Below, in pieces: positions 2,074 to 32,000 of a stretch of 32,000 bases of DNA. This DNA is from Trichodesmium erythraeum IMS101. GTDB lineage: Bacteria > Cyanobacteriota > Cyanobacteriia > Cyanobacteriales > Microcoleaceae. Where the stretch lies: the NCBI RefSeq assembly GCF_000014265.1, contig NC_008312.1, positions 3,300,001 through 3,332,000 on the forward strand. Direction: 5' to 3'. The notes under the pieces are model-generated. The model had not been told where the DNA came from. It searched no databases and saw only the letters and a list, made by a program, of their open reading frames with translations. Both the position numbers and the translations under genes were made by a program. Numbering within the stretch: position 1 is the first letter of the stretch; every line of letters starts with the position of its first letter.

Positions 2074-3507
2074 ATGTATGATTTGTTTGCTATAATTTCC
2101 CAAAACACTAACATTTTCCAATCTATGGATATTAAAGAAGTTTTGAAGTTGGTTGAGGAGCTAATTTATGACCATACCGGAGAAAATTTAGACTATCTGC
2201 CAAAAACTATATTGCAAGGCACTTTAGAAGGTCAGACTTACAAAAAAATTTCTGAGGAAACTTACGCTAGCGAAACCCATGTTAGGTATATTGGTGCTAA
2301 ATTATGGAAAACTTTATCGGAAATACTCGGTGAAAATATTACCAAAGCAAATTTTAGAACAATTTTAGAAAATACAAATATTTACAATTTTGTACCTGTT
2401 GTTTGTAGAGATAATGCAACAAATAACATTAATATCTGTCCGTCAAACCCTCACGCTTCCGCAATAAAAACCAACTCTGAACAAACACCAACTCAACATA
2501 TTATTGACCTAGACAAAGCGCCAGAAATTATCAACTTTTATGGGCGCACAGAGGAAATATCAACCATGACAAAATGGATAGTGAGCGATCGCCTCCGTGT
2601 CATTTCCCTTTTAGGAATAAGTGGTATCGGCAAAACGACCCTTTCTCTAAGATTAATTCAACAAATAAATGGGTTAGAAAACCAAACCCCTACCTTTAAC
2701 TACATCATTTATCGGACCCTACGCTTTTCTCCCACCCTCACCACAACCCTCACTAACCTCCTGCAAATTTTCGCACCAGAAACAGAAGTTTCCCACAATA
2801 TCGACATCCTATTATCACAACTACAAAAATACCTAGCAAAATATTCTTGCTGGATCATATTTGATGACGTACACAAATTATTTACTCCGGGAAAACTTGC
2901 TGGTCAATACAAATCTGGTTATGCAAATTATCGGGATTTTTTTCAACTATTTGCCACAGTCTCCCATCAGAGTTGTCTACTATTAATAAGTAGAGAAAAA
3001 ATAGCAGAAATTTTCAAATTAGAAACAGAAAATTATCCAGTGGAAACTTTAATTTTAGGAAGTTTAGGAGCTTCGTCTAAAGCAATCTGTCAAAGGCACA
3101 AGTTAGTAAATCAAGAATCCTGGGAAAAATTGATTAATAATTATCAAGGAAATCCGCAATGGTTAGATATAACAGCAACAATAATTCAAGAATTATTTAG
3201 AGGTAAAGTAGCAGAATTTATGGAATATAAAACCCTAATTTTACCAGAAGCATTACAAGCCGAATTAGAACAACAATTACAAAATTTATCCCCTCTTGAA
3301 ATCAGAATGATGAAGCAAATAGCCAACCAAAGCCAACCTATTTCAATAGCGGAAATAAGTAGACAATCACAACTATCTATTCAGGAAAATATTAACTTAA
3401 TTCAATCCCTAAAGAAGCGGTTATTATTATATGGGCAGTTAGAGAATAATTTGACAGTATTTACTCTGAATTCAATCTGGAATCAATACTTAAAAAATAA
3501 AAATTAG
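2074..3507 (+). CDS. STAND (NB-ARC/NACHT-like) P-loop NTPase with N-terminal HTH-like domain, no C-terminal repeat sensor
   Basis: 477 aa. The N-terminus (LQGTLEGQTYKKISEETYASETHVRYIGAKLWKTLSEILGENITKANFRTILE) is the HTH-like module that heads many cyanobacterial NACHT/NB-ARC-WD40 proteins. It has Walker A LLGISGIGKTTL (nt 2614-2640), Walker B CWIIFDDVH, LLLISRE and GNPQWL motifs, then a winged-helix-like tail. The ORF ends without WD40/TPR repeats. The ATG at 2125 is an alternative start. Confidence 0.75.
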   Translation: MYDLFAIISQNTNIFQSMDIKEVLKLVEELIYDHTGENLDYLPKTILQGTLEGQTYKKISEETYASETHVRYIGAKLWKTLSEILGENITKANFRTILENTNIYNFVPVVCRDNATNNINICPSNPHASAIKTNSEQTPTQHIIDLDKAPEIINFYGRTEEISTMTKWIVSDRLRVISLLGISGIGKTTLSLRLIQQINGLENQTPTFNYIIYRTLRFSPTLTTTLTNLLQIFAPETEVSHNIDILLSQLQKYLAKYSCWIIFDDVHKLFTPGKLAGQYKSGYANYRDFFQLFATVSHQSCLLLISREKIAEIFKLETENYPVETLILGSLGASSKAICQRHKLVNQESWEKLINNYQGNPQWLDITATIIQELFRGKVAEFMEYKTLILPEALQAELEQQLQNLSPLEIRMMKQIANQSQPISIAEISRQSQLSIQENINLIQSLKKRLLLYGQLENNLTVFTLNSIWNQYLKNKN

Positions 3508-4072
3508 TAGGATAAAATTTTTATTTTTTCTACATGTCAACTTTTTTTCATTATCACCTTAAATAATATCATTATAAATAATATTTTCAACTAAAAATTA
3601 TGCGATATCATGCAACAAGGAGTTATATTATATCTATTGAAATAGTTAGAATGAAAACTTGAAGTAAGACTTGAGCAGTAAAACATATATAGAAAATTCT
3701 AAGTATATAAAGTTGAAATATTAAGAATAAATATTTTGTAATTTCGCTATATTAACTGTCATAGCTATACCTAAAATTTGATCAAATATTCTGTATTTTA
3801 TAGGCTAAATCCCTACTAAAAACAAAAAAAATATCAAAATTTATCACTTGTTATCCAGATATAATATTACTTATCAATAGATTTATAAGAGTAAATTTCC
3901 TGATTATAAAAACAAATAATCATCAATAAAAATCTAGTTTATTGTTTAATATCAGACAATTATTAGCAACAAAATCCACTCAAAAAATATGGCTCAAAAT
4001 ATTCCAGCTAAAAATATCAACATTCTCTAAATAATAAATAATTCAGGAATTAAAAAAAACAAAGGTAAATAA

Positions 4073-4627
4073 TTATTCCGGGAATTGCAAGATAATTTAC
4101 TAGAAATTACTGACTTATAAAAAAACTCCTATAACAAGCAAAAACCGGTTTTTTTAAACCTAATAGATTATCCGCCATTGCTAGAAAATATTGTTAGGAT
4201 GTCAGTAGTTAAACCCATCTTATTTATTGGTAATTTTTGTCTGTATCCATTGTATATTCGTAAGGAAATTACAGTTAATTTAGCTCTTGACAATGAGGAT
4301 ATTATTATTAAAGGTAAGATTGATAAATTAGCGTTAAAAGACCAATTTTAGAGAATAGTAATTGAGTCTAAAAAAGCTGAATTTTCTCTAGAAGCTGGGC
4401 GGGGTCAAATTCTTGCTTATATGTTAACAAATCCTCATTCAAATCGGCCTAATTATGGAGCGATTTCTACAGGTGACGGTTTTATGTTTATTAAATTAGT
4501 TAATGGAGAAATACCGCAATATGCTCTTTCTCAAGGATTTTTTACTTTTCATCCTGGTAATAAACTTTATGATGTACTTCCCATTCTCAAACCCTTAACT
4601 GAAATTGTCTTAAAAAGAATTGAATAG
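4073..4627 (+). pseudogene. HsdR_N-like PD-(D/E)xK nuclease-domain gene, disrupted by two in-frame stops
   Basis: A single frame reads FRELQDNLLEITDL*KNSYNKQKPVFLNLIDYPPLLENIVRMSVVKPILFIGNF...IIIKGKIDKLALKDQF*RIVIESKKAEFSLEAGRGQILAYMLTNP... It shows the D...ExK core and overall pattern of the cyanobacterial 'type I restriction enzyme HsdR N-terminal domain' family. The frame is interrupted by TAA (4118-4120) and TAG (4349-4351). ORF-track entry 4421..4627 is its tail. Confidence 0.6.
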
Positions 4628-14389: not shown

Positions 14390-15124
14390 CTAGTCGCGAC
14401 TACCACCACTAATTGCAATTAGAAGTCGTAGAATAAATATGAATAGGTTGATATAAGTTAAGTACATTGAGAGAGCTGCGAGAACATACTGATCGTCGCG
14501 ATAAGTACGGGGCATAATATAGAAATCTACTACTGCAGCACCAGCAAATAAAAATACACCAATACCAGAAATGGCAATTTCTAACCACCCTGCAGTATAG
14601 ACACCAAAAAATCTCAAAATAACTTGGCCGATAACCGCCACCAATAATGCAGTTATTCCTAGGCTCACAGTTCTTGTTAAAGCCATTCCATCTTCTTCAG
14701 ACAAATTTGATCCTATTTGACGAGCTGCAATAAAGGTGACACCACAACCACCAGCTGCAAAACCTAGTCCCCCAAGACCTACTCCTTGCGTATTTAAAGC
14801 TATATATACTAAACCAGCCAGGGTATATCCTGATAGCAAGCTATAAGTAGCTAATAAAGGTAGAGCCACATTATTATTACCCTTTTCCGCAATTGTACGG
14901 GCAACAAAAAATAGGGCTAATTCTGCTACCAATGCTATCCAGAAGGTAGTTTGAAATAGACCAGGGTTAGATTTTAAGACTCCTAGGCCACCAAATATAC
15001 CTACTGCTGTAAGAACGAGGCCACCGCCTACAAAAGGTAAAGCATTAACAATGACATTAGGGCCAACTAACGATTGGCCTTTGGCATCACGCATTGCTTG
15101 ACGGAAATTACTGGTATTAGCCAT
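14390..15124 (-). CDS. Bax inhibitor-1/YccA family membrane protein
   Basis: 244 aa with about 7 TM helices and the characteristic C-terminal stretch LSMYLTYINLFIFILRLLIAISGGSRD (compare LYLDFINLFLxLLR in BI-1/YccA proteins). Confidence 0.8.
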   Translation of the reverse strand: MANTSNFRQAMRDAKGQSLVGPNVIVNALPFVGGGLVLTAVGIFGGLGVLKSNPGLFQTTFWIALVAELALFFVARTIAEKGNNNVALPLLATYSLLSGYTLAGLVYIALNTQGVGLGGLGFAAGGCGVTFIAARQIGSNLSEEDGMALTRTVSLGITALLVAVIGQVILRFFGVYTAGWLEIAISGIGVFLFAGAAVVDFYIMPRTYRDDQYVLAALSMYLTYINLFIFILRLLIAISGGSRD

Positions 15125-15926
15125 AATTTTTTCTCTTAGTTAATCAAAAAGAATTTCTATTTATAATATTGTGACACTGGAGTTGATTTTGTGCATATAC
15201 CAAATCCACTATTATGTGAAGTTGACGTACAAGCAAATTTAGGATTCGATGGCTCAGTAACAAACGTTGATATTAGACTTCTCCTCCAAAAAGCTTCTCA
15301 AACCCTTATACTCCTTTTCCAAAATCAGTATTTTTGGATATATATATTATAATGAAACCTGACGAAACATTGCTTGAAATAACGACATTATTTAAGTTTT
15401 GGTGTAGTTGTTACAGGTTTAGTTGCTACCCATCCTCAGAAAAACTCCTAGGCAAAATTTCATAAGACAATTTGATTATTTTTGCAGTTCTTTTAACATA
15501 GTTAAGTTATTTGATTTTTTTTTCGTTATGGTCAAACAATAGACGTTTTTGTATTTTTTTTAAAATTATATCTGCTATATTATATCTGTGAATTAATATT
15601 AGTTATTGTTCAGTTTTTCATTTATATTTTTACTTTTTTGTCAGAGCAAGATTTTTCTATTCATCATTATTATCTAGCCTATATATATTTCATTATGTAC
15701 TATAAAAATCGTAAATTATATTAGATAAAGTATGATATATATTCAAATTAGCTACCCTTAACAATTGTACTTTTCTATGATACTTTATTTACATTCAAAA
15801 TTATTTAGGATTAGTATATATATAATCAATTATTGTTTTGTTATAATTTATTTATTGTGCCCATAAATATTCATTTTTTTATCATAATTGTTCTGACAAA
15901 CTCGATAGCAATAATTATTGCAATAT

Positions 15927-16064
15927 TTATATCAAATAATCAAATATATTGTTGATAGTGAACTCACCTACACCAAAGTTAATTCCTAGTATTAGCAAAT
16001 GTGGGTATATGATGTAAATAGTATGTATAAAGTTAAAATAATTTGCTCTTCTACTTTTAGTCAT
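15927..16064 (-). CDS. candidate small hydrophobic protein (45 aa) with canonical Shine-Dalgarno
   Basis: The ATG at 16064 is preceded by AAGAGGAGGT (GAGGAGG = 16074-16080), an unusual G-rich heptamer in very AT-rich DNA. It encodes MTKSRRANYFNFIHTIYIIYPHLLILGINFGVGEFTINNIFDYLI*. I recognise no homology, and 45 open codons could arise by chance. Confidence 0.25.
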   Translation of the reverse strand: MTKSRRANYFNFIHTIYIIYPHLLILGINFGVGEFTINNIFDYLI

Positions 16065-17629
16065 TTATTTAGACCTCCTCTTAATTTAATTATTTCTTTT
16101 TTTATTTGAGCTATTTTTAGCTTTTTTATTTTTATCTATAATTTTAGCATTTTTTACTAATTTTTTTCCATTTCTTATCAGTAAGATTAACAATTATTTT
16201 TCTTTGTTTTGGATAGTGATTAATATTTTCTAATATTTGATTCATTAGGAGATATTTTTTACAAAATATTCACTACGATTATAGCTTAATTTTTATTTTA
16301 GAGATATCTATTATGTAAAAAGTACTTAATACTAATTGCTATAAATAATGCCAAGTTTGGTAAAAGTTTAGTTATTCAAGAATTCAGAGAAAATCAACAA
16401 CTTTTTTACTACTATTACTTCAATTAATATTAATTTTTAATTTTACTTATTGTCTATTATCCCGCTAACCTTACCCTACTTTTATACTCAATAAAATGTA
16501 GATTTTTTTTTATAAATGTCATAATATAGGGCTACGCAGTATTATTAATGCAATGATATAATGATAAAAATTAAACAAATAATGGAAAAGAAATTCTTCA
16601 GCCTTATAGTTATAATTTACACTCCTTCAAATTAGTATTCTCAAGCATTAAATAACTTACGCAGTCACCATAATATATACTAGGGGGCAACAACCTTAAT
16701 ACTGATAAATAGTATATGATTTAATATTACTGAGTAAGTATATATCAAGTCTAAATAATATCAAAATGACTTACACAAAGGCAATAAATATAGTGCAAAT
16801 ATATCAAATAATCACCATTATTAATAATAAAAATGTCAGATAATTTTAAGATAAATTTAGAGAGAATTTGTCTAGATATATAGATAGCAATTATCCCTCA
16901 AGACTCAATTATAAAGAGTGATAATTTAATTAAAAAGCTATAAAAATGAGAGCAAATAAATTTCCACATTTTTGGGTTGCCTAATTAATCAATTAAGAAA
17001 AACTTAATTGAGACTCTCAGGAAATTTATTAAATATGAAAGGATTAAATTTGATGCTTATGAGAGTTTGCAAAGTTTACTATGGTAATTTTCAGTTAAAA
17101 ATATATCATTAATTTTGTTTAGCCACTTAATTTTCCTTTGGTTAAAAAGCTAAACTCTATAACAAGACAAGAATCAACCCATAGAACATGTAATCAATTC
17201 TATGATTCTACAAGAATTGTAGCCCGAATCAATCAAGTAAAAAAGGTGCTCCAAATCCCCAAATTCAATTATCTAGTAGAGTACAAAATAACTAGTTATC
17301 AAGTATTTCCAGAACAAAATACAATTGAGTTGCAAAATAGTTTTAAAGCTAGTGTCTTTGACTTATGAACTAACCATGATTTAGTCTAGTGCTCAGAATA
17401 GTAAATAAGTCGTATTAGAGTTATTAGATTTGAGGCGAGGTTATTCTGCTCAGTTTTTAGTAAACCTTGAGAGAAAAGAAACTCATAATTTTGAAGAAAA
17501 TTTAGTAGGAATTAATTTAAGTTTAAATGCTGTTTATACTGATAATAATAATAATATTAAAGTAATTATATAATTATAAATATATACTTTATAATAAATG
17601 CTAAAATTTTGTAATAAAAATCGTAAATT

Positions 17630-21809: not shown

Positions 21810-22571
21810 TCAACTAGCTAAAGTCTTCAAAAGTTTGTTTGCTATATCGAAATTAGCAGTAATATTCTGCACATCATCAAGATCGTCAAGAGCATCCATT
21901 AACTTGAGAAGCGATCGCGCCTGTTCCGGATCACTCACCTCAATAGTATGAGCAGAAACCCACCGAAATTCTACCTCACTAATATCAAAGCCCTTCTCTT
22001 GTAATACCTGACTCAAATTTTCTAAATTAGTAGTTTCCGTGAAAACCTCCACACCTTGAAAATCATCTTCTGCAATTACTTCATAATATTCCGCTTCCCC
22101 TTCCACAGATGCTTCGAGTAACTCATCCTCATCATAACTTCCTGTAATACTAACCACACCTTTTTGGTCAAACATCCAACTCACGCAACCAGTCTCACCT
22201 AAATTACCACCATTTTTGGTAAACGCACTTCTTAGGTCTGCTGCTGTACGGTTGCGGTTATCTGTCAAGGCCTCAATTATAATTGCTATACCTCCAGCAC
22301 CATAGCCCTCATAACGAATCTCCTCCAATTGACTGCCATCATTTAATTGGCCTGAACCTTTAGCGATCGCTCGTTCAATATTATCATTGGGAATACCTAC
22401 TGTCTTTGCCTTCTCTATCGCCGTGCGTAACTGAAAATTACCAGCAGGATCAGCTCCACTGCGAGCAGCAACAATAATTTGCCGAGATACTTTAGCGAAA
22501 ACTTTTCCTTTAACAGCATCAACTCTTGCTTTTTGGCGTTTAATATTGGCCCACTTACTATGTCCTGCCAT
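21810..22571 (-). CDS. yebC: YebC/PmpR family DNA-binding transcriptional regulator
   Basis: 253 aa starting with the family hallmark MAGHSKWANIKRQKARVDAVKGKVFAKVSRQIIVAARSGADP. Confidence 0.95.
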   Translation of the reverse strand: MAGHSKWANIKRQKARVDAVKGKVFAKVSRQIIVAARSGADPAGNFQLRTAIEKAKTVGIPNDNIERAIAKGSGQLNDGSQLEEIRYEGYGAGGIAIIIEALTDNRNRTAADLRSAFTKNGGNLGETGCVSWMFDQKGVVSITGSYDEDELLEASVEGEAEYYEVIAEDDFQGVEVFTETTNLENLSQVLQEKGFDISEVEFRWVSAHTIEVSDPEQARSLLKLMDALDDLDDVQNITANFDIANKLLKTLAS

Positions 22572-22623: not shown

Positions 22624-22851
22624 GTTACACTTGACATACTCTGTACCGGGAGCTGAAACAATGTACTCAGACTCAATAGAGCAGCGATAAATCCGGTATT
22701 TTTAGGAGTTAGTCCAGTCTTTCCTCTCTCTAAGTGCATAGTTATACACAAAGTGATAAATATCTAGCCATCTGTCAATGGCAGAAGTTTCCTCAATAAT
22801 AGGTATCAACCTATCCTGATAATTGAGAGTTAGCACAGGAGAGAAAATTAA
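22624..22851 (-). pseudogene. TnpB (IS200/IS605-family OrfB) N-terminal fragment
   Basis: The minus strand reads LTLNYQDRLIPIIEETSAIDRWLDIYHFVYNYALRERKDWTNS*KYRIYRCSIESEYIVSAPGTEYVKCN. This matches the conserved TnpB N-terminus (..VWNYALRERKDW..SRK....CSI.SEYI...). It has an in-frame stop and is truncated after about 75 codons, just upstream of yebC. Confidence 0.6.
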
Positions 22852-25009: not shown

Positions 25010-25507
25010 TCATGAACAGCCTAGACTCTCGCGAGTTTCTACTCCTGTTGTCTTATTCTTTCCTGAAGCTGTTTCACACATTAATTTTATCTGATAGCGG
25101 TCTACCATTGCTCCAGAAAAATCTGTTCCTATCACTGTTGCATCACGGAAGGTGCTACTCATTAACATGGCATCTGTGAAAATAGCATTAGTTAAGTCAC
25201 TTTTATCAAAGCTAACTCGGTCTGCAAAAGTCCCAGTAAAGTCTGCTTCTGTTAAATTAGCTCTTAAAAAATCTCCTTTGGTAAGAATTGTGTTTTGTAG
25301 ATTTGCACCTTGAAAATTTGCCTTCCACATTGTTGCACCTGCAAAGGAAGTACCATGTAAATCTTTATAAGAAAAATCCCGGTTGTTTAAATCTGTAAGG
25401 GTATAGTTAACATTATTTTCTACTGCTTGAACTGAATAGATATTCATTACCCAAAAACCAGCAACTGTCAAAATTAAGATAAATGTCCAAATTCCTTTTT
25501 TTAACAT
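25010..25507 (-). CDS. pentapeptide-repeat protein with signal anchor (thylakoid-lumen TL15-like)
   Basis: 165 aa with an N-terminal hydrophobic signal (IWTFILILTVAGFWVMNIY). Tandem A(D/N)LXX pentapeptides follow (ANFQGANLQNTILTKGDFLRANLTEADFTG...), then a C-terminal Cys pair (LMCETASGKNKTTGVETRESLGCS). Confidence 0.85.
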   Translation of the reverse strand: MLKKGIWTFILILTVAGFWVMNIYSVQAVENNVNYTLTDLNNRDFSYKDLHGTSFAGATMWKANFQGANLQNTILTKGDFLRANLTEADFTGTFADRVSFDKSDLTNAIFTDAMLMSSTFRDATVIGTDFSGAMVDRYQIKLMCETASGKNKTTGVETRESLGCS

Positions 25508-27913: not shown

Positions 27914-28837
27914 TTGGCTTACTCAAAAAAATTAATGAATACTAAATTCGATTCACCTGACTTTATTCAAGCAGAAAGTTTGCTACAAGAATTATTTGAA
28001 GAGTTACAAAAACAAGAAGGTTTATTGGCTGGGGGTCAAAAGCTGGGAATTACTACCAGTATAATTAAAGATTTACAGGAGACTAAAGTTAGTTTTGGCA
28101 ACCCTAAAAATGAGTTAATTCCCTTAACAGAAGAAATATTTAAAGAGGCTGAGATAGAGTTAAATCATCTAATCAAGCAACAAATGAAGGATGATTATAA
28201 TTTTTATTATTTGACTCTAAATGTTAATTTGCTTCCCCAGCCAGGAGCTAAATTTTGGCGTTTAACTTGTAAACTTAAGTTAAGTGAAGAAAAAACAATC
28301 ATTCAAAGTATTTTTCCTGAACATAAATGGCAACCAGTTATCAAAATTGGTGTGGGTATGGATATAGGAATTAATCAGAATTTAACTTGGGATGCTGGTA
28401 TTGACTCTTCCATGATAACAGAGGTCTTGAAGTTTGTTCCAGCTAATTTGAAAGCTAATATTGTAAGTAAAAATAAATTTAAAGCTTTTGCTGTTATTCC
28501 TGACTGTAAATATGAGTTAGGTCGTCCAGAAATTGTAGCTGAAGGAATAGGTTCACCAGAGTGTTATTGGCGAATTCAAGACAAGAACATACAGAAAGTT
28601 GGTACGGTTAAGTTTGGAGTTATTTTCAAAGTTCCTAAACAAACAAAATCTATTACTTTAACTGGAATAACTTTGGCTAATATAGATATTAATTTGTTGA
28701 CAGATAATATTAGCGATATTGTTTTAGCTAGGCTTCCTGAAAAAATTCAAGAGTGGTTAGGTTTGGATGCAGAAGAGTCAGCTAAAAAATTTTTCAGAGG
28801 TGACAATGAAAAGTGGGATTTAAAGCTGCCACAGTAA
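27914..28837 (+). CDS. uncharacterised protein (helical N-terminus, beta-rich core, charged helical tail); first gene of CHAT operon
   Basis: 307-aa ORF from TTG 27914, or 300 aa from the more likely ATG 27935. I recognise no motif. The core has alternating hydrophobic strands (YYLTLNVNLL, WRLTCKLKLS, VIKIGVGMDIGIN, KFKAFAVIPDCKYELG, VGTVKFGVIFKVP, SITLTGITLANIDINLL). It lies 54 nt upstream of the CHAT gene on the same strand. Confidence 0.7.
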   Translation: MAYSKKLMNTKFDSPDFIQAESLLQELFEELQKQEGLLAGGQKLGITTSIIKDLQETKVSFGNPKNELIPLTEEIFKEAEIELNHLIKQQMKDDYNFYYLTLNVNLLPQPGAKFWRLTCKLKLSEEKTIIQSIFPEHKWQPVIKIGVGMDIGINQNLTWDAGIDSSMITEVLKFVPANLKANIVSKNKFKAFAVIPDCKYELGRPEIVAEGIGSPECYWRIQDKNIQKVGTVKFGVIFKVPKQTKSITLTGITLANIDINLLTDNISDIVLARLPEKIQEWLGLDAEESAKKFFRGDNEKWDLKLPQ

Positions 28838-28891
28838 ATGTATCTTGTTGTTTAGTTTGATATTTATTAATTTTTAAATAAGTGTTGACTG

Positions 28892-30991
28892 ATGTCTAAT
28901 AGTTATTATATTTATCGTATTCATCTGAAAAATCATCATAATGTGGAAATTGAAAGATATAATCATAAAAAAAAATTGCCAGGAAGCTCGTCTGGAAAGT
29001 TTTGTTATCAAGAAAAAGAAAAAGAAATTCAAAAGCTTTTGGAAGTTGCTATTAATAATGAACTAAATGCAGAACAAACCAGTCAGTTGGGGGAAGCTTT
29101 ATTTAATAGTTTATTTGATTCTAGATTATGCCAAGATTTTATTAATTTTTACTTTGAAGTTGTACAGAAAAAAAAGCAAAAATTACGAATAGAATTAGAT
29201 ATTGATGAAAAAGAAATGCCAGAATTTGCTGCTTTACCTTGGGAATTTTTATGTATTCCTGAAGAAGTTAATCAAGGTACGATTTGGTTAGGAACAGATC
29301 CTAATTTAATATTTTCTCGCCGTCGTGCTTTATGGAATTCTGCTAAGACAATACAATTAGAAAAAGATGAAAAATTGAGAATTGCTTTAGCTATTTCTGC
29401 ACCTGAAAATGAAGGTCCTGTCGAATATGCAGAAGTACAAGAGTATTTAGAAGAGTTGGCTAAGAAACAATCTGAACAAATTGAATTATTACCTATAATA
29501 AATCCAGCTACAAAAATTGAAATTGATAGATTATTAGAGAAAAAACCTCATATTTTTCATTTTATTGGTCATGGTCGTTTTGAGGATGAAGCAGAGAAAA
29601 AAGTAGGAAAAATTGCTTTAGGAAAAAAAGTTGGAAAAAAAATATTAGCTAGATGGGTTAGTGAGAAATTCTTTGCTCAATTATTTGTTCGTCATCGTCC
29701 TGGTATTGTTGTTTTACAAGCTTGTGAAGGAGGAAAGCAGTCTGCATCTGAAGCTTTTAAGGGAGTTGCTTCTAAAATTGTGGCTCAAAGTATTCCTGTG
29801 GTAGTGGCAATGCAATATAAGGTACAGAATGCTACAGCTAATGCTTTTTCTACGGAATTTTATAGGAGATTAGCAAAGGGTGAACCTGTTGATATTGCTG
29901 CTCAAAATGGTCGTCATGATGTGGCTTTACAAACTGATTATTCAGGTAATGATTTTGCTACACCTGTTATTTTTATGAGTGTAGAAGATGGTTGTTTATT
30001 TCAAAAGGAAGAGGTTCAAAAAAAAATAGTATCTGATTCTTTTTCGTTATCTGAAATAAACCCCAACCAAACGTTTAATATTATTGATGATAATGTTGTG
30101 GAAAATCAGAAAAATCAGTGTCTTGATGATAATAATTATGTTTATTTGGCGATAGATTTAAAATTAGAAAGCACAAAAATTCAGAAAAATGATGCAGACA
30201 AATTCCTGGTTAATACATGGTTGGCAATTCCTCAATCTTCTCAAAGTTTTTATCATAAAAATTTGTTAAATACTTTTGAATATAATCGAACTTATAGTCA
30301 GGCAGAGGTTGAAGAAAAAATTATGAAACTAATTGCAGAATGTAATGAAGAATTAGCAAATATTTTCCCTCCAGAAAAAGATTGGGAGATTGCTATAGAA
30401 TGGGTTCTTCCTAATAATTTATTATCTCTACCTGTTGACTGTTGGGAGTATCGAAAAAATGAAAGGATAGGACGTGGTAAATTTCTTTCTGTTCATATTC
30501 GTTCATCTCAACGTTTACACATAGCTTATAAACATTATCATAAATCATGGAAAGATAAATGGAACTATCTTCAGGGAAACATACAAAATATTAATTTGGG
30601 TAACTATATTTTAGCTTGCCAATGTCAAAATATTAATGATAATTATTTGAAAAATATTGATAATAAAAAGAAGATTCTGGGGATTAATTTCCCCTTCAAA
30701 ATAGAAGAGTTAGAAAATATTACTTATGAGTTAATGATAGAAACAGGAATTCCTATAGCTTTGTGGTCTAGATGTAAAGAGTCTAATGTGAATCACCTTA
30801 TAGATTTAGATACATTGATAAACCCCAATAATGAAAATGTTTTAAATCTACAAAATTTACCTGAATATGTGGAACAGAAGAGGTTAGACTCTCATTCAAA
30901 TGACCCTCATCATTTAGGACATCATCTTTGCTTTTTATGTGAAAATCCTTATAATTATCCAATAAAAAGAAAATTAAATTTTGGGTATTAA
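28892..30991 (+). CDS. CHAT-domain (caspase-fold) cysteine protease with uncharacterised, VMAP-C-like C-terminal domain
   Basis: 699 aa. The CHAT core spans about aa 95-370 (LRIELDI...LPWEFL). The catalytic His is in HIFHFIGHG (H227, nt 29570-29572) and the catalytic Cys in VVLQACEGG (C278, nt 29723-29725). The C-terminal ~285 aa carry IEWVLPNNLLSLPVDCWEY, VHIRSSQRL, SWKDKW, GIPIALWSRC and HLCFLCENP. Confidence 0.85.
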   Translation: MSNSYYIYRIHLKNHHNVEIERYNHKKKLPGSSSGKFCYQEKEKEIQKLLEVAINNELNAEQTSQLGEALFNSLFDSRLCQDFINFYFEVVQKKKQKLRIELDIDEKEMPEFAALPWEFLCIPEEVNQGTIWLGTDPNLIFSRRRALWNSAKTIQLEKDEKLRIALAISAPENEGPVEYAEVQEYLEELAKKQSEQIELLPIINPATKIEIDRLLEKKPHIFHFIGHGRFEDEAEKKVGKIALGKKVGKKILARWVSEKFFAQLFVRHRPGIVVLQACEGGKQSASEAFKGVASKIVAQSIPVVVAMQYKVQNATANAFSTEFYRRLAKGEPVDIAAQNGRHDVALQTDYSGNDFATPVIFMSVEDGCLFQKEEVQKKIVSDSFSLSEINPNQTFNIIDDNVVENQKNQCLDDNNYVYLAIDLKLESTKIQKNDADKFLVNTWLAIPQSSQSFYHKNLLNTFEYNRTYSQAEVEEKIMKLIAECNEELANIFPPEKDWEIAIEWVLPNNLLSLPVDCWEYRKNERIGRGKFLSVHIRSSQRLHIAYKHYHKSWKDKWNYLQGNIQNINLGNYILACQCQNINDNYLKNIDNKKKILGINFPFKIEELENITYELMIETGIPIALWSRCKESNVNHLIDLDTLINPNNENVLNLQNLPEYVEQKRLDSHSNDPHHLGHHLCFLCENPYNYPIKRKLNFGY

Positions 30992-31080
30992 TTTAGTACT
31001 GTTTATTAGCTGACCTTGTGGGAAAAATTAATGGATTTGGTAGTAACATTTTATCAGTTTATTAATTTTGAAACCTGAAA

Positions 31081-32000
31081 CATAACACCTGAGAAAAAAA
31101 AGAATGAATTTTGTTAATTCTTACACCTAATACCTAACACCTGAAACTTAAAATTTTAGAAAAAAGAAAAAATTTTGTTCCTTTTTAAACCTCAAACCTA
31201 AAGCCTAAAGCCTAAAAACTAAAGCCTAAAACCTAAAACCTAAAACCTAAAGCCTAAAACCTAAAACCTAAAACCTAAAACCTAAAACCTAAAGCCTAAA
31301 ACCTAAAACCTAAAGTAACACCTAAAACTCATGAGTAAAAAGAACAAATTTTGTTAATTTTTAAACCTAAAACCTAAAGCCTAAAACCTAAAACCTAAAA
31401 CCTAAAGCCTAAAACCTAAAACCTAAAGTAACACCTAAAACTCATGAGTAAAAAGAACAAATTTTGTTAATTTTTAAACCTAAAACCTAAAGCCTAAAAC
31501 CTAAAGCCTAAAACCTAAAACCTAAAACCTAAAACCTAAAACCTAAAGTAACACCTAAAACTCATGAGTAAAAAGAACAAATTTTGTTAATTTTTAAACC
31601 TAAAACCTAAAACCTAAAACCTAACACCTAAAACCCAATACCTAAAGCCTAAAACCTAACACCTAAAACCTAAAACCTAAAGCCTAAAACCTAAAACCTA
31701 AAGCCTAAAACCTAAAACCTAAAGTAACACCTAAAACTCATGAGTAAAAAGAACAAATTTTGTTAATTTTTAAACCTAAAACCTAAAGCCTAAAACCTAA
31801 TACCTAACACCTAAAACCTAAAGCCTAAAACCTAACACCTAAAACCTAAAGTAACACCTAAAACTCATGAGTAAAAAGAACAAATTTTGTTAATTTTTAA
31901 ACCTAAAACCTAAAGCCTAAAACCTAACACCTAACACCTAATACCTAAAGTCTAATACCTAAAACCTAAAACCTAACACCTAACACCTAAAACTTATGAG
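31081..32000. repeat. nested tandem array: 50-bp constant units separated by 9-18 CCTAAAR heptamers (runs off window end)
   Basis: The constant unit taacacctaaaactcatgagtaaaaagaacaaattttgttaatttttaaa occurs at 31316, 31429, 31549, 31725 and 31852, with a partial variant at 31981. Two degenerate units lie at 31081-31125 and 31147-31189. The heptamer blocks between units contain 18, 9, 10, 18, 11 and 11 copies, so unit spacings are 113, 120, 176 and 127 bp and differ by multiples of 7. Confidence 0.9.

Follow-up and report, generated by a model that had tools for sequence, protein, structure and literature searches.

A conserved 5′ partner gene of a CHAT protease in a VMAP ternary conflict system of Trichodesmium erythraeum IMS101, and its possible role as a pore-forming effector

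In classical ternary systems of vWA-MoxR-associated proteins (VMAPs), the VMAP joins an N-terminal peptidase, cyclase or EAD to a C-terminal VMAP-C domain, and it is encoded next to a MoxR ATPase carrying WxhapG and PsWRxa motifs and a vWA-domain protein whose C-terminal domains vary, being FGE-sulfatase (FGS) in cyanobacteria (Kaur, Burroughs, Iyer & Aravind 2020, PMC7159879; cited here and below from excerpts). According to that survey, the two N-terminal motifs are diagnostic of MoxR in VMAP systems, and FGS is diversified by a diversity-generating retroelement (DGR) in ~80% of the cyanobacterial ones. DGR-diversified vWA-FGS proteins are regarded as sensors, and the MoxR/vWA pair as a switch that activates the VMAP protease (Doré et al. 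2024). Pepco and EACC1 are protease-activated pore formers, each encoded 5′ of a protease, and the same is true of gasdermin (Evans et al. 2025 preprint, PMC12642450). The locus considered here lies at the end of a 32,000-nucleotide (nt) stretch of Trichodesmium erythraeum IMS101 (NC_008312.1, positions 3,300,001 to 3,332,000; hereafter the window), and its subject is a pair of adjacent open reading frames (ORFs): ORF1, of an unnamed family, and ORF2, which encodes a CHAT protease.

This locus is a four-component conflict operon of the abortive-infection or programmed-death kind, of which ORF1 and the protease are the first two genes. Its order is Tery_2131 (ORF1), Tery_2132 (CHAT-VMAP-C, ORF2), an array of tandem heptamers, the MoxR ATPase and lastly a vWA-FGS protein. 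It is a classical cyanobacterial VMAP ternary system, since CHAT and VMAP-C are joined in ORF2, a MoxR gene starts at 31996 and a vWA-FGS gene follows downstream. The locus also resembles the FGS/DGR-linked type in its filamentous cyanobacterial host, and a DGR link is probable. The differences are an extra conserved 5′ gene, ORF1, which falls outside the Pfam families derived from the excerpted Kaur survey, and the 1-kb heptamer array that splits the IMS101 operon. While the type of system is already known, the Tery_2131 family, its pairing with the protease and its predicted toxin-like fold are new. ORF1 is read below as a CHAT-activated pore-forming effector, possibly the cell-killing component, an interpretation with about an even chance of being correct. 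The features of the locus are:

27935–28837, + strand: ORF1 (Tery_2131, 300 amino acids [aa]), founding member here of an unnamed family that is the constant partner, on the 5′ side, of a single subfamily of CHAT proteases
28892–30991, + strand: ORF2 (Tery_2132, 699 aa), VMAP component with an N-terminal CHAT caspase-fold protease and a C-terminal VMAP-C domain (Pfam)
29090–29926, + strand: CHAT protease domain of ORF2, aa 67–345 (Pfam, E 1.3e-16)
29570–29572, + strand: codon of catalytic His227, in the FIGHG motif
29723–29725, + strand: codon of catalytic Cys278, in the LQACEGG motif
30200–30949, + strand: VMAP-C domain of ORF2, aa 437–686 (PF20028, E 1.2e-19, full coverage, profile positions 2–226 of 226)
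31187–31993, no strand assigned: tandem array of the heptamer AAACCTA (TAGGTTT on the other strand), ~115 copies in higher-order units of 113–127 nt
31996–32000, + strand: first five bases (ATGAG) of a MoxR-type AAA+ ATPase gene (ABG51367.1, 315 aa), placed by alignment to contig L004

A first-pass annotation, made from the sequence alone, had described two ORFs on the same strand 54 nt apart. They run from 27914 (TTG) or 27935 (ATG) to 28837 and from 28892 to 30991. Both exist as deposited IMS101 genes by exact-sequence look-up, ORF1 under the name “hypothetical protein”. A start at the TTG would lengthen ORF1 by 7 aa. The true start is probably the ATG at 27935, with the TTG not used, because homologues are all ~300 aa long and start at the second Met, and because deposited Tery_2131 has 300 aa. 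The module is somewhat lower in GC (0.30–0.32) than the region of the housekeeping gene yebC (0.37–0.40), and its flanks are AT-rich (GC 0.25–0.29), both as had been noticed. Rfam gave zero matches over the whole window, and scans for promoters and terminators gave no signal beyond that of shuffled sequences.

The CHAT core with an intact His/Cys dyad and the VMAP-C-like tail, both recognized in the first pass, are borne out by the Pfam matches listed above, and His227 and Cys278 are invariant across 24–45 partner proteases. In contrast, the apparent absence of MoxR, vWA or STAND genes in cis proved to be an artefact of the window edge. The MoxR start codon occupies 31996–31998 and the window stops after ATGAG, with the body of the gene outside it. 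L004 is a near-identical public contig of T. erythraeum GBRTRLIN201 that carries the same CHAT protein followed, 975 nt on, by a 315-aa AAA+ gene. When the last 1.1 kb of the window was aligned to it, all unambiguous aligned bases agreed over the 3′ end of the CHAT gene, over the initial repeat units and in the stretch leading to the MoxR start, and differences were confined to the interior of the array. Consistent with this arrangement, the IMS101 accessions of ORF1, the CHAT gene and the ATPase are consecutive (ABG51365, ABG51366 and ABG51367). The ATPase matches Pfam AAA_5, AAA_2 and, weakly, bpMoxR, and its N-terminus (MSNWQIFKG...PPWRNF) fits both the WxhapG and the PsWRxa motif.

The vWA-FGS component was identified in L010, a field Trichodesmium metagenome-assembled genome (MAG) whose ORF1 is 93% identical, as a downstream 1088-aa protein with a C-terminal FGS domain (E 7e-59). 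Pfam did not recognize vWA in the N-terminal half of this protein, and a PDB sequence search with the vWA region returned only integrin I-domains at E 0.44. By hhalign, a profile of the N-terminal region aligned to the CoxE-type vWA proteins that this kind of system has in Anabaena and Chloroflexota (probability 90%, E 1.7e-6, 161 columns), including the strand with the DxSxSM motif of the metal-ion-dependent adhesion site. The gene is also present in L004, where it is preceded by a duplicated 5′ fragment. In IMS101 it is probably Tery_2136, as judged from the order of locus tags (2131–2133) alone. The 12 targets with a variable region that are listed for the IMS101 DGR include Tery_2136, in which a frameshift was noted (Pfreundt et al., PMC4143802). 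With MoxR and vWA genes present just past the window, an outcome that the first pass itself had named as refuting its reading, the suggestion that ORF1 replaces them as sensor or adaptor falls away. So does that of an undescribed cell-suicide or defence module as far as the whole is concerned, which is a known ternary VMAP system; what stands of it is an undescribed ORF1 family in conserved pairing with a protease.

ORF1 had been taken to belong to an unknown family, and even at E≤1 it matches nothing in Pfam, NCBIfam or PADLOC. A first search returned 36 clusters of homologues, all ~300 aa, unnamed and from filamentous cyanobacteria. With a profile, 1.84 billion representatives gave 339 clusters at E≤1e-3, of which 233 also passed E≤1e-10. 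When one genome of each species was scanned, with ORFs labelled by hidden Markov models built from the window and its relatives, 57 ORF1 loci came to light in filamentous cyanobacteria, several Chloroflexota (Ardenticatenaceae, Leptovillus and Thermoflexales) and one member of the Sericytochromatia. Forty-nine of these had a near-complete ORF1 and enough downstream DNA to be counted, and in 46 of the 49 a CHAT gene lies directly 3′ of ORF1 on the same strand, at spacings of −98 to +325 nt. All three exceptions still lie in conflict-system contexts. For instance, in Hormoscilla (L045 8850–19829) a Peptidase_C14 caspase is directly 5′ of ORF1 and a complete three-gene pPIWI_RE defence island is 3′. 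In the second locus the neighbours of ORF1 are an NB-ARC-TPR gene together with ParA and an integrase, and in the third it comes after a pentapeptide-repeat protein.

The adjacency is conserved in the reverse direction as well. A metagenome scan was seeded with the CHAT domain, and relatives with at least 39% identity and at least 900 nt of upstream sequence were considered. A full ORF1 homologue is directly 5′ of CHAT in 24 of 25 such relatives, and the 25th has an ORF1 fragment; five further relatives have the 3′ end of ORF1 at the contig edge. CHAT relatives at ≤35% identity mostly have no upstream ORF1. The Tery_2131 family is, then, an obligate 5′ partner of one CHAT subfamily in two phyla of filamentous bacteria, and the pairing that the first-pass annotation had proposed to check among homologues is a conserved one.

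Two further arrangements were seen in the course of these scans. Trichodesmium MAG_R02 and MAG_R03 (L033 9959–19699; L042 3150–7092) possess a second, paralogous ORF1/CHAT-VMAP-C/MoxR/vWA system, in which ORF1 is ~49% identical and an extra 579-aa gene lies between the VMAP and MoxR genes. At L029 4307–6507, a different 295-aa protein with no Pfam match is located 62 nt 5′ of a CHAT gene of the same subfamily, with an orphan copy of ORF1 5 kb away. This protein was rejected as a divergent ORF1 (hhalign probability 0.1%), and at this locus one effector may have displaced another ahead of the same protease.

While ORF1 and the CHAT domain are constant, what surrounds them is not. The partner proteases are conserved over their N-terminal ~370 aa and variable in the remainder. 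Pfam domains in 45 of them comprise CHAT (45), EAD10 (6), VMAP-C (5), EAD7 (5), EAD1 (3), NB-ARC (4), NACHT (3) and FGE-sulfatase (3), with TPR arrays in two or three of the NACHT proteins. EAD10 recurs in 16 of 53 downstream genes, others of which encode NACHT, NB-ARC or nSTAND5 NTPases with TPRs, and at 12 of the 46 loci a MoxR gene could be detected no more than 9 kb away. In Anabaena cylindrica, for example, the order is ORF1, CHAT (with an EAD9-like domain), iSTAND, MoxR, vWA and FGS. The ORF1 domain is elsewhere fused to EAD2, EAD7, TIR or pentapeptide repeats (the last in P0056 and P0243), and in giant proteins it is N-terminal to CHAT, in one case with a STAND module of the NACHT type as well. 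Effector or signalling domains that stand alone are linked by EADs to the NTPase core, and EAD7 belongs to the effector-recruiting group, as set out in the excerpted survey (Kaur et al. 2020, PMC7159879). A constant gene set beside swapped sensors and switches is the signature of an output cassette. Whether ORF1 and its CHAT subfamily form a portable two-gene cassette of protease and executioner is, in our judgement, evenly balanced. In other genomes such a cassette would be wired to iSTAND ternary systems, to STAND/NLR-like NTPases through EAD10, EAD7 and EAD1 adaptors, or to directly fused FGS sensors.

The same adjacency can be accommodated by a different role. ORF1 could be a constant regulatory subunit, such as a sensor, scaffold, chaperone or inhibitor, which keeps CHAT inactive or brings substrates to it, with lethality arising from CHAT cleavage of other cellular proteins or from domains linked to vWA. 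Conserved adjacency and co-divergence with one CHAT subfamily would be equally expected of an obligate regulatory partner, and the helical N-terminal domain of ORF1 could be an interaction module. There is precedent in the excerpts of Kaur et al. (PMC7159879), where the analogous 5′ partner EACC1 was predicted to be a sensor and lethality through CHAT cleavage of other targets was first proposed for both VMAP and EACC1 systems. Later work showed, however, that EACC1 is a pore former that undergoes cleavage and not a sensor (PMC12642450), and fusions join the ORF1 domain to EAD7, an effector-recruiting adaptor according to the excerpted survey, and to EAD2 and TIR. Furthermore, the fold neighbours of ORF1 described below are toxins only, and it is not obvious what a soluble regulator would do with a conserved, amphipathic and Gly-rich hairpin. 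A purely regulatory ORF1 is considered unlikely, although it is the strongest of the competing explanations.

A confident AlphaFold2 model of the full ORF1 protein, built on an alignment of 26 sequences, has a predicted local distance difference test score (pLDDT) of 88.4 and a predicted template-modelling (TM) score (pTM) of 0.86. It consists of a helical region at aa 10–86, a beta core of ~11 strands at aa 88–250, four short helices at aa 252–283 and a last strand at aa 287–297, which agrees with the sketch of helical N-terminus, beta core and helical tail drawn from sequence in the first pass. Its parts are:

27935–28195, + strand: N-terminal acidic helical domain, aa 1–87, isoelectric point (pI) 4.6, with the conserved motif KVSFGNPxNELIxLTEE
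28196–28684, + strand: basic beta-rich core, aa 88–250, pI 9.4, with alpha-hemolysin/leukocidin-like fold similarity by Foldseek
28346–28405, + strand: glycine-rich amphipathic beta-hairpin IGVGMDIGINQNLTWDAGID, aa 138–157, a candidate membrane-inserting (pre-stem-like) element
28685–28837, + strand: acidic C-terminal segment, aa 251–300, pI 4.5, with four short helices and a conserved terminal strand (W294, L298)

Hydrophobic residues alternate strictly with Gly, Asp or Asn in the hairpin, a pattern that is conserved across 26 homologues and resembles, at the level of sequence, the glycine-rich stem of hemolysins. Within the family, indels are most abundant in the C-terminal segment, with distant relatives aligning only to profile position ~278, and the segment is a candidate autoinhibitory or cleavage region. 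Removal of the N-terminal domain from the model lowers the confidence of aa 254–285 below pLDDT 50, which suggests that both acidic helical parts pack against each other and cap the core. No transmembrane helix or signal peptide was detected in ORF1, whose N-terminus is polar and helical and whose maximum 19-residue hydropathy is 0.97.

Comparison of the full model with the PDB by Foldseek gave 95 matches at E≤1e-3, and the best 50 were all toxins of the alpha-hemolysin/leukocidin family, including NetF, Epx, delta-toxin, Panton-Valentine leukocidin (PVL), gamma-hemolysin, alpha-hemolysin (alpha-HL), LukAB/GH, CytK and Vibrio cholerae cytolysin (VCC). The best matches had E values of 1e-6 to 1e-5 and a probability of 1.0, with a TM-score of only 0.25–0.40. 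A core-only model (aa 85–300, 52 sequences, pLDDT 81.7) gave hemolysin-family toxins for 49 of its 50 best matches, with a query-normalized TM-score (TMq) of 0.45–0.51 and a root-mean-square deviation of 4.5–5.9 Å against monomer or prepore forms. The likeness of the modelled ORF1 to hemolysins is a reproducible, borderline resemblance at the level of fold and not proven homology. A search of PDB sequences with the ORF1 profile returned nothing below E 1, the only match being phosphoribulokinase at E 1.4, which is noise. ORF1 was rejected as a gasdermin, as it has no gasdermin match in Pfam or PADLOC at E≤1 and there is no gasdermin among the best 50 Foldseek matches of either model. The analogy to gasdermin operons that had been drawn from the sequence is accordingly reasonable in its logic, a protease next to a latent membrane-active protein, and does not extend to the fold, for which the only neighbours are alpha-hemolysin/leukocidin toxins.

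The modest scores leave room for a protease-released effector that kills without making pores, for instance one that binds or sequesters a cellular or phage target or that builds non-membrane assemblies, in which case the hemolysin likeness would reflect no more than a generic beta-sandwich. TM-scores do not exceed ~0.5, sequence homology to toxins is absent and the ORF1 core is 80 aa shorter than in hemolysins, and many effectors of such systems are non-enzymatic assembly or decoy domains, as described in the excerpted survey (PMC7159879). A generic sandwich does not readily account for 49–50 of the best 50 structural matches belonging to one toxin family with two independent models, nor for the conserved alternating hairpin with its glycine-rich face and the basic core. 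This explanation is accorded a low probability, below that of a regulatory ORF1.

Returning to ORF1 as a CHAT-activated pore former, the following sequence of events can be proposed. The vWA-FGS protein would sense a foreign ligand, with the C-type-lectin-like tip of FGS probably being the DGR target Tery_2136. The MoxR/vWA pair would then act on the VMAP-C platform as an ATP-dependent switch, and the CHAT protease would be turned on. The protease would cut ORF1, until then soluble, autoinhibited and alpha-hemolysin-like, and the acidic cap formed by its N- and C-terminal helices would be removed or loosened. Finally, the basic beta core would bind the cytoplasmic membrane from inside and oligomerize, the glycine-rich hairpin would insert as a beta-barrel pore, and the cell would die. 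Given a vWA-FGS sensor and a MoxR/vWA switch (Doré et al. 2024), the most economical role for ORF1 is that of protease substrate and executioner. Precedent for it is strong, since bacterial gasdermins are encoded 5′ of their proteases, and Pepco and EACC1, likewise small constant partners on the 5′ side of proteases in this class of systems, were shown to be protease-activated pore formers (Evans et al. 2025 preprint). An effector role is supported by the fusions of the ORF1 domain to EAD2, EAD7, TIR and NACHT...CHAT, and by the exceptional locus where Peptidase_C14 takes the place of CHAT next to a pPIWI_RE island. Features that fit a latent pore former are the toxin matches of both models, the alternating hairpin, the lack of a transmembrane helix or signal peptide, the basic core between acidic ends and the predicted packing of the cap.

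Several points weigh against this reading. Gene content, domain identities, adjacency in both directions, domain fusions and fold similarity are observed, and we infer that ORF1 is cut, that it makes pores and which way the signal passes. The modelled fold match is borderline (TM-score 0.25–0.40 for the full protein and 0.45–0.51 for the core, identity 6–11%), and no link at the sequence level was found between ORF1 and a toxin family, Pfam Leukocidin included. The hairpin was likened to the hemolysin stem by its sequence pattern and not by superposition, and its strands are short at ~9 residues each. ORF1 has no obvious rim domain, a cleavage site in it was not predictable, and Tery_2136 was assigned to the locus by locus-tag order only. 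The downstream half of the operon in IMS101 may also be decaying, in view of the repeat expansion, the IS630-like fragment and the vWA 5′ duplicate described below, and of the Tery_2136 frameshift.

Bacterial gasdermin-protease operons, reportedly described by Johnson et al. in 2022, share with this locus a soluble, beta-rich protein of ~300 aa directly 5′ of a caspase-like or CHAT protease with variable fused sensor domains, as well as the logic of a latent, autoinhibited membrane effector. ORF1 differs in showing no gasdermin signal in sequence or fold, its neighbours being alpha-hemolysin/leukocidin toxins, and in having an 87-aa helical N-terminal domain besides a C-terminal tail. The EACC1-caspase and Pepco-protease modules also have a constant small 5′ partner ahead of a protease with a highly variable C-terminal part. 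As for ORF1, they are enriched in multicellular bacteria and are coupled to FGS/DGR, Avs/STAND and EAD adaptors. In contrast to EACC1, a small domain with a single transmembrane helix, and Pepco, a pre-assembled barrel of 117 aa, ORF1 is a soluble 300-aa protein of three parts without such a helix. ORF1 was rejected as EACC1 for lack of a Pfam EACC1 match and of a transmembrane helix (as EACC1 is defined in the excerpts of PMC7159879), and as Pepco/Trypco or CATASP solely on the absence of any Pfam match. It has no match to any Pfam model of the ten families surveyed by Evans et al. 2025 (PMC12642450), which are Csx30, CalpT, gasdermin, PCaspase, MBL, alpha/beta-hydrolase, Pepco, EACC1, CATASP and MPE. 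The alpha-hemolysin/leukocidin toxins (alpha-HL, PVL, NetB/NetF and delta-toxin) resemble the predicted ORF1 structure, at a borderline level, in their beta-sandwich core, and like it have a glycine-rich amphipathic hairpin in mid-sequence. They are secreted, whereas ORF1 is cytoplasmic without a signal peptide, has a core ~80 aa shorter with extra helical segments at both ends, is 6–11% identical at a TM-score of at most ~0.5, is coupled to a protease and would act on the membrane of its own producer. The Tery_2131 family is not described in the excerpts of Kaur et al. 2020 and 2021, in Evans et al. 2025, in papers on DGRs or in the results of full-text searches, coverage of which was incomplete and is weak evidence of novelty. 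Within the same incomplete coverage, no literature was found on a hemolysin-like or CHAT-coupled pore former or on Tery_2131 to Tery_2135.

The heptamer array bears on the condition of the IMS101 copy. It occurs nowhere else in the window, and at the end of each of its higher-order units the MoxR start region (ACTCATGAGTAA...) is copied along with a mini-ORF (ATGAGTAAAAAGAACAAATTTTGTTAA). The array looks as if the 5′ end of MoxR and its leader had been duplicated in tandem several times over. Degenerate 64-nt units are found at window positions 31073–31217. The spacing between CHAT and MoxR is 1004 nt in IMS101 versus 164–275 nt in other Trichodesmium and in Okeania, the extra DNA being the array. 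No more than two short array units are present in relatives (L010 8010–8263), and short-read assemblies often break at the array. Between MoxR and the vWA-FGS gene is a 168-aa ORF with HTH_32/HTH_23 matches, which is an N-terminal fragment of an IS630-like transposase (L004 14289–15466; L010 9477–9983). In L004, a 142-aa duplicate of the vWA gene 5′ end closes in the same SSQQNSTAVEDSK tail as this ORF, and the common tail suggests a local duplication or insertion event.

These features raise the possibility that the IMS101 locus is a decaying remnant, in which ORF1 and CHAT are intact but uncoupled from MoxR/vWA and the two-gene appearance is due to erosion. The widened CHAT-MoxR spacing, the IS630-like ORF with the duplicated vWA fragment, the Tery_2136 frameshift and the reported inactivation of the DGR in the culture strain (PMC4143802) are all in keeping with decay. 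Even so, ORF1, CHAT and MoxR are full length, in the same order and 90–93% identical to the copies in field MAGs, and the catalytic dyad and MoxR motifs are intact. Decay is accorded a very low probability, the least of the alternatives. It is compatible with the other readings and not exclusive of them, as erosion of the IMS101 copy would leave the nature of the module unchanged.

Elsewhere in the window, the − strand at 25010–25507, 2.4 kb from the module and on the opposite strand to it, encodes a 165-aa protein with a signal-peptide-like N-terminus and repeats that look pentapeptide-like by eye, without a recorded Pfam family and with no link to ORF1 shown. A 44-aa HTH_OrfB_IS605 fragment at ~22702–22836 (− strand; placed from L004 3811–3945) is an IS200/IS605 remnant and adjoins the yebC-like gene (21810–22571). 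Long stretches of GC 0.21–0.27 at 3000–4500 and 15000–17500 lack any ORF of at least 90 aa, and are typical of the low coding density of the Trichodesmium genome.

The collapse of Trichodesmium blooms through caspase-like programmed cell death is ecologically important. Now that cyanobacterial VMAP and STAND systems with DGR-diversified FGS are read as sensors (Doré et al. 2024), ORF1, as a conserved and toxin-like partner with a strict link to a protease, is a direct candidate for the component that kills the cell. If the proposed role is correct, it would also add a structurally distinct family to the protease-activated effector modules of Evans et al. 2025, and the two-gene cassette is small enough for testing in E. 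coli. More tentatively, and with the balance tilted against it, the family may represent a cytoplasmic, protease-gated branch of the alpha-hemolysin/leukocidin fold, and an evolutionarily independent, non-gasdermin executioner of CHAT cell-death pathways in multicellular bacteria, namely filamentous cyanobacteria and Chloroflexota. On that reading it would provide the terminal effector missing from sensor systems of the DGR-diversified VMAP/STAND kind, and would be a concrete molecular candidate for the caspase-associated cell death with which Trichodesmium blooms end. The hemolysin fold is known only from secreted toxins, and such a branch would suggest an intracellular suicide use, or origin, for it.

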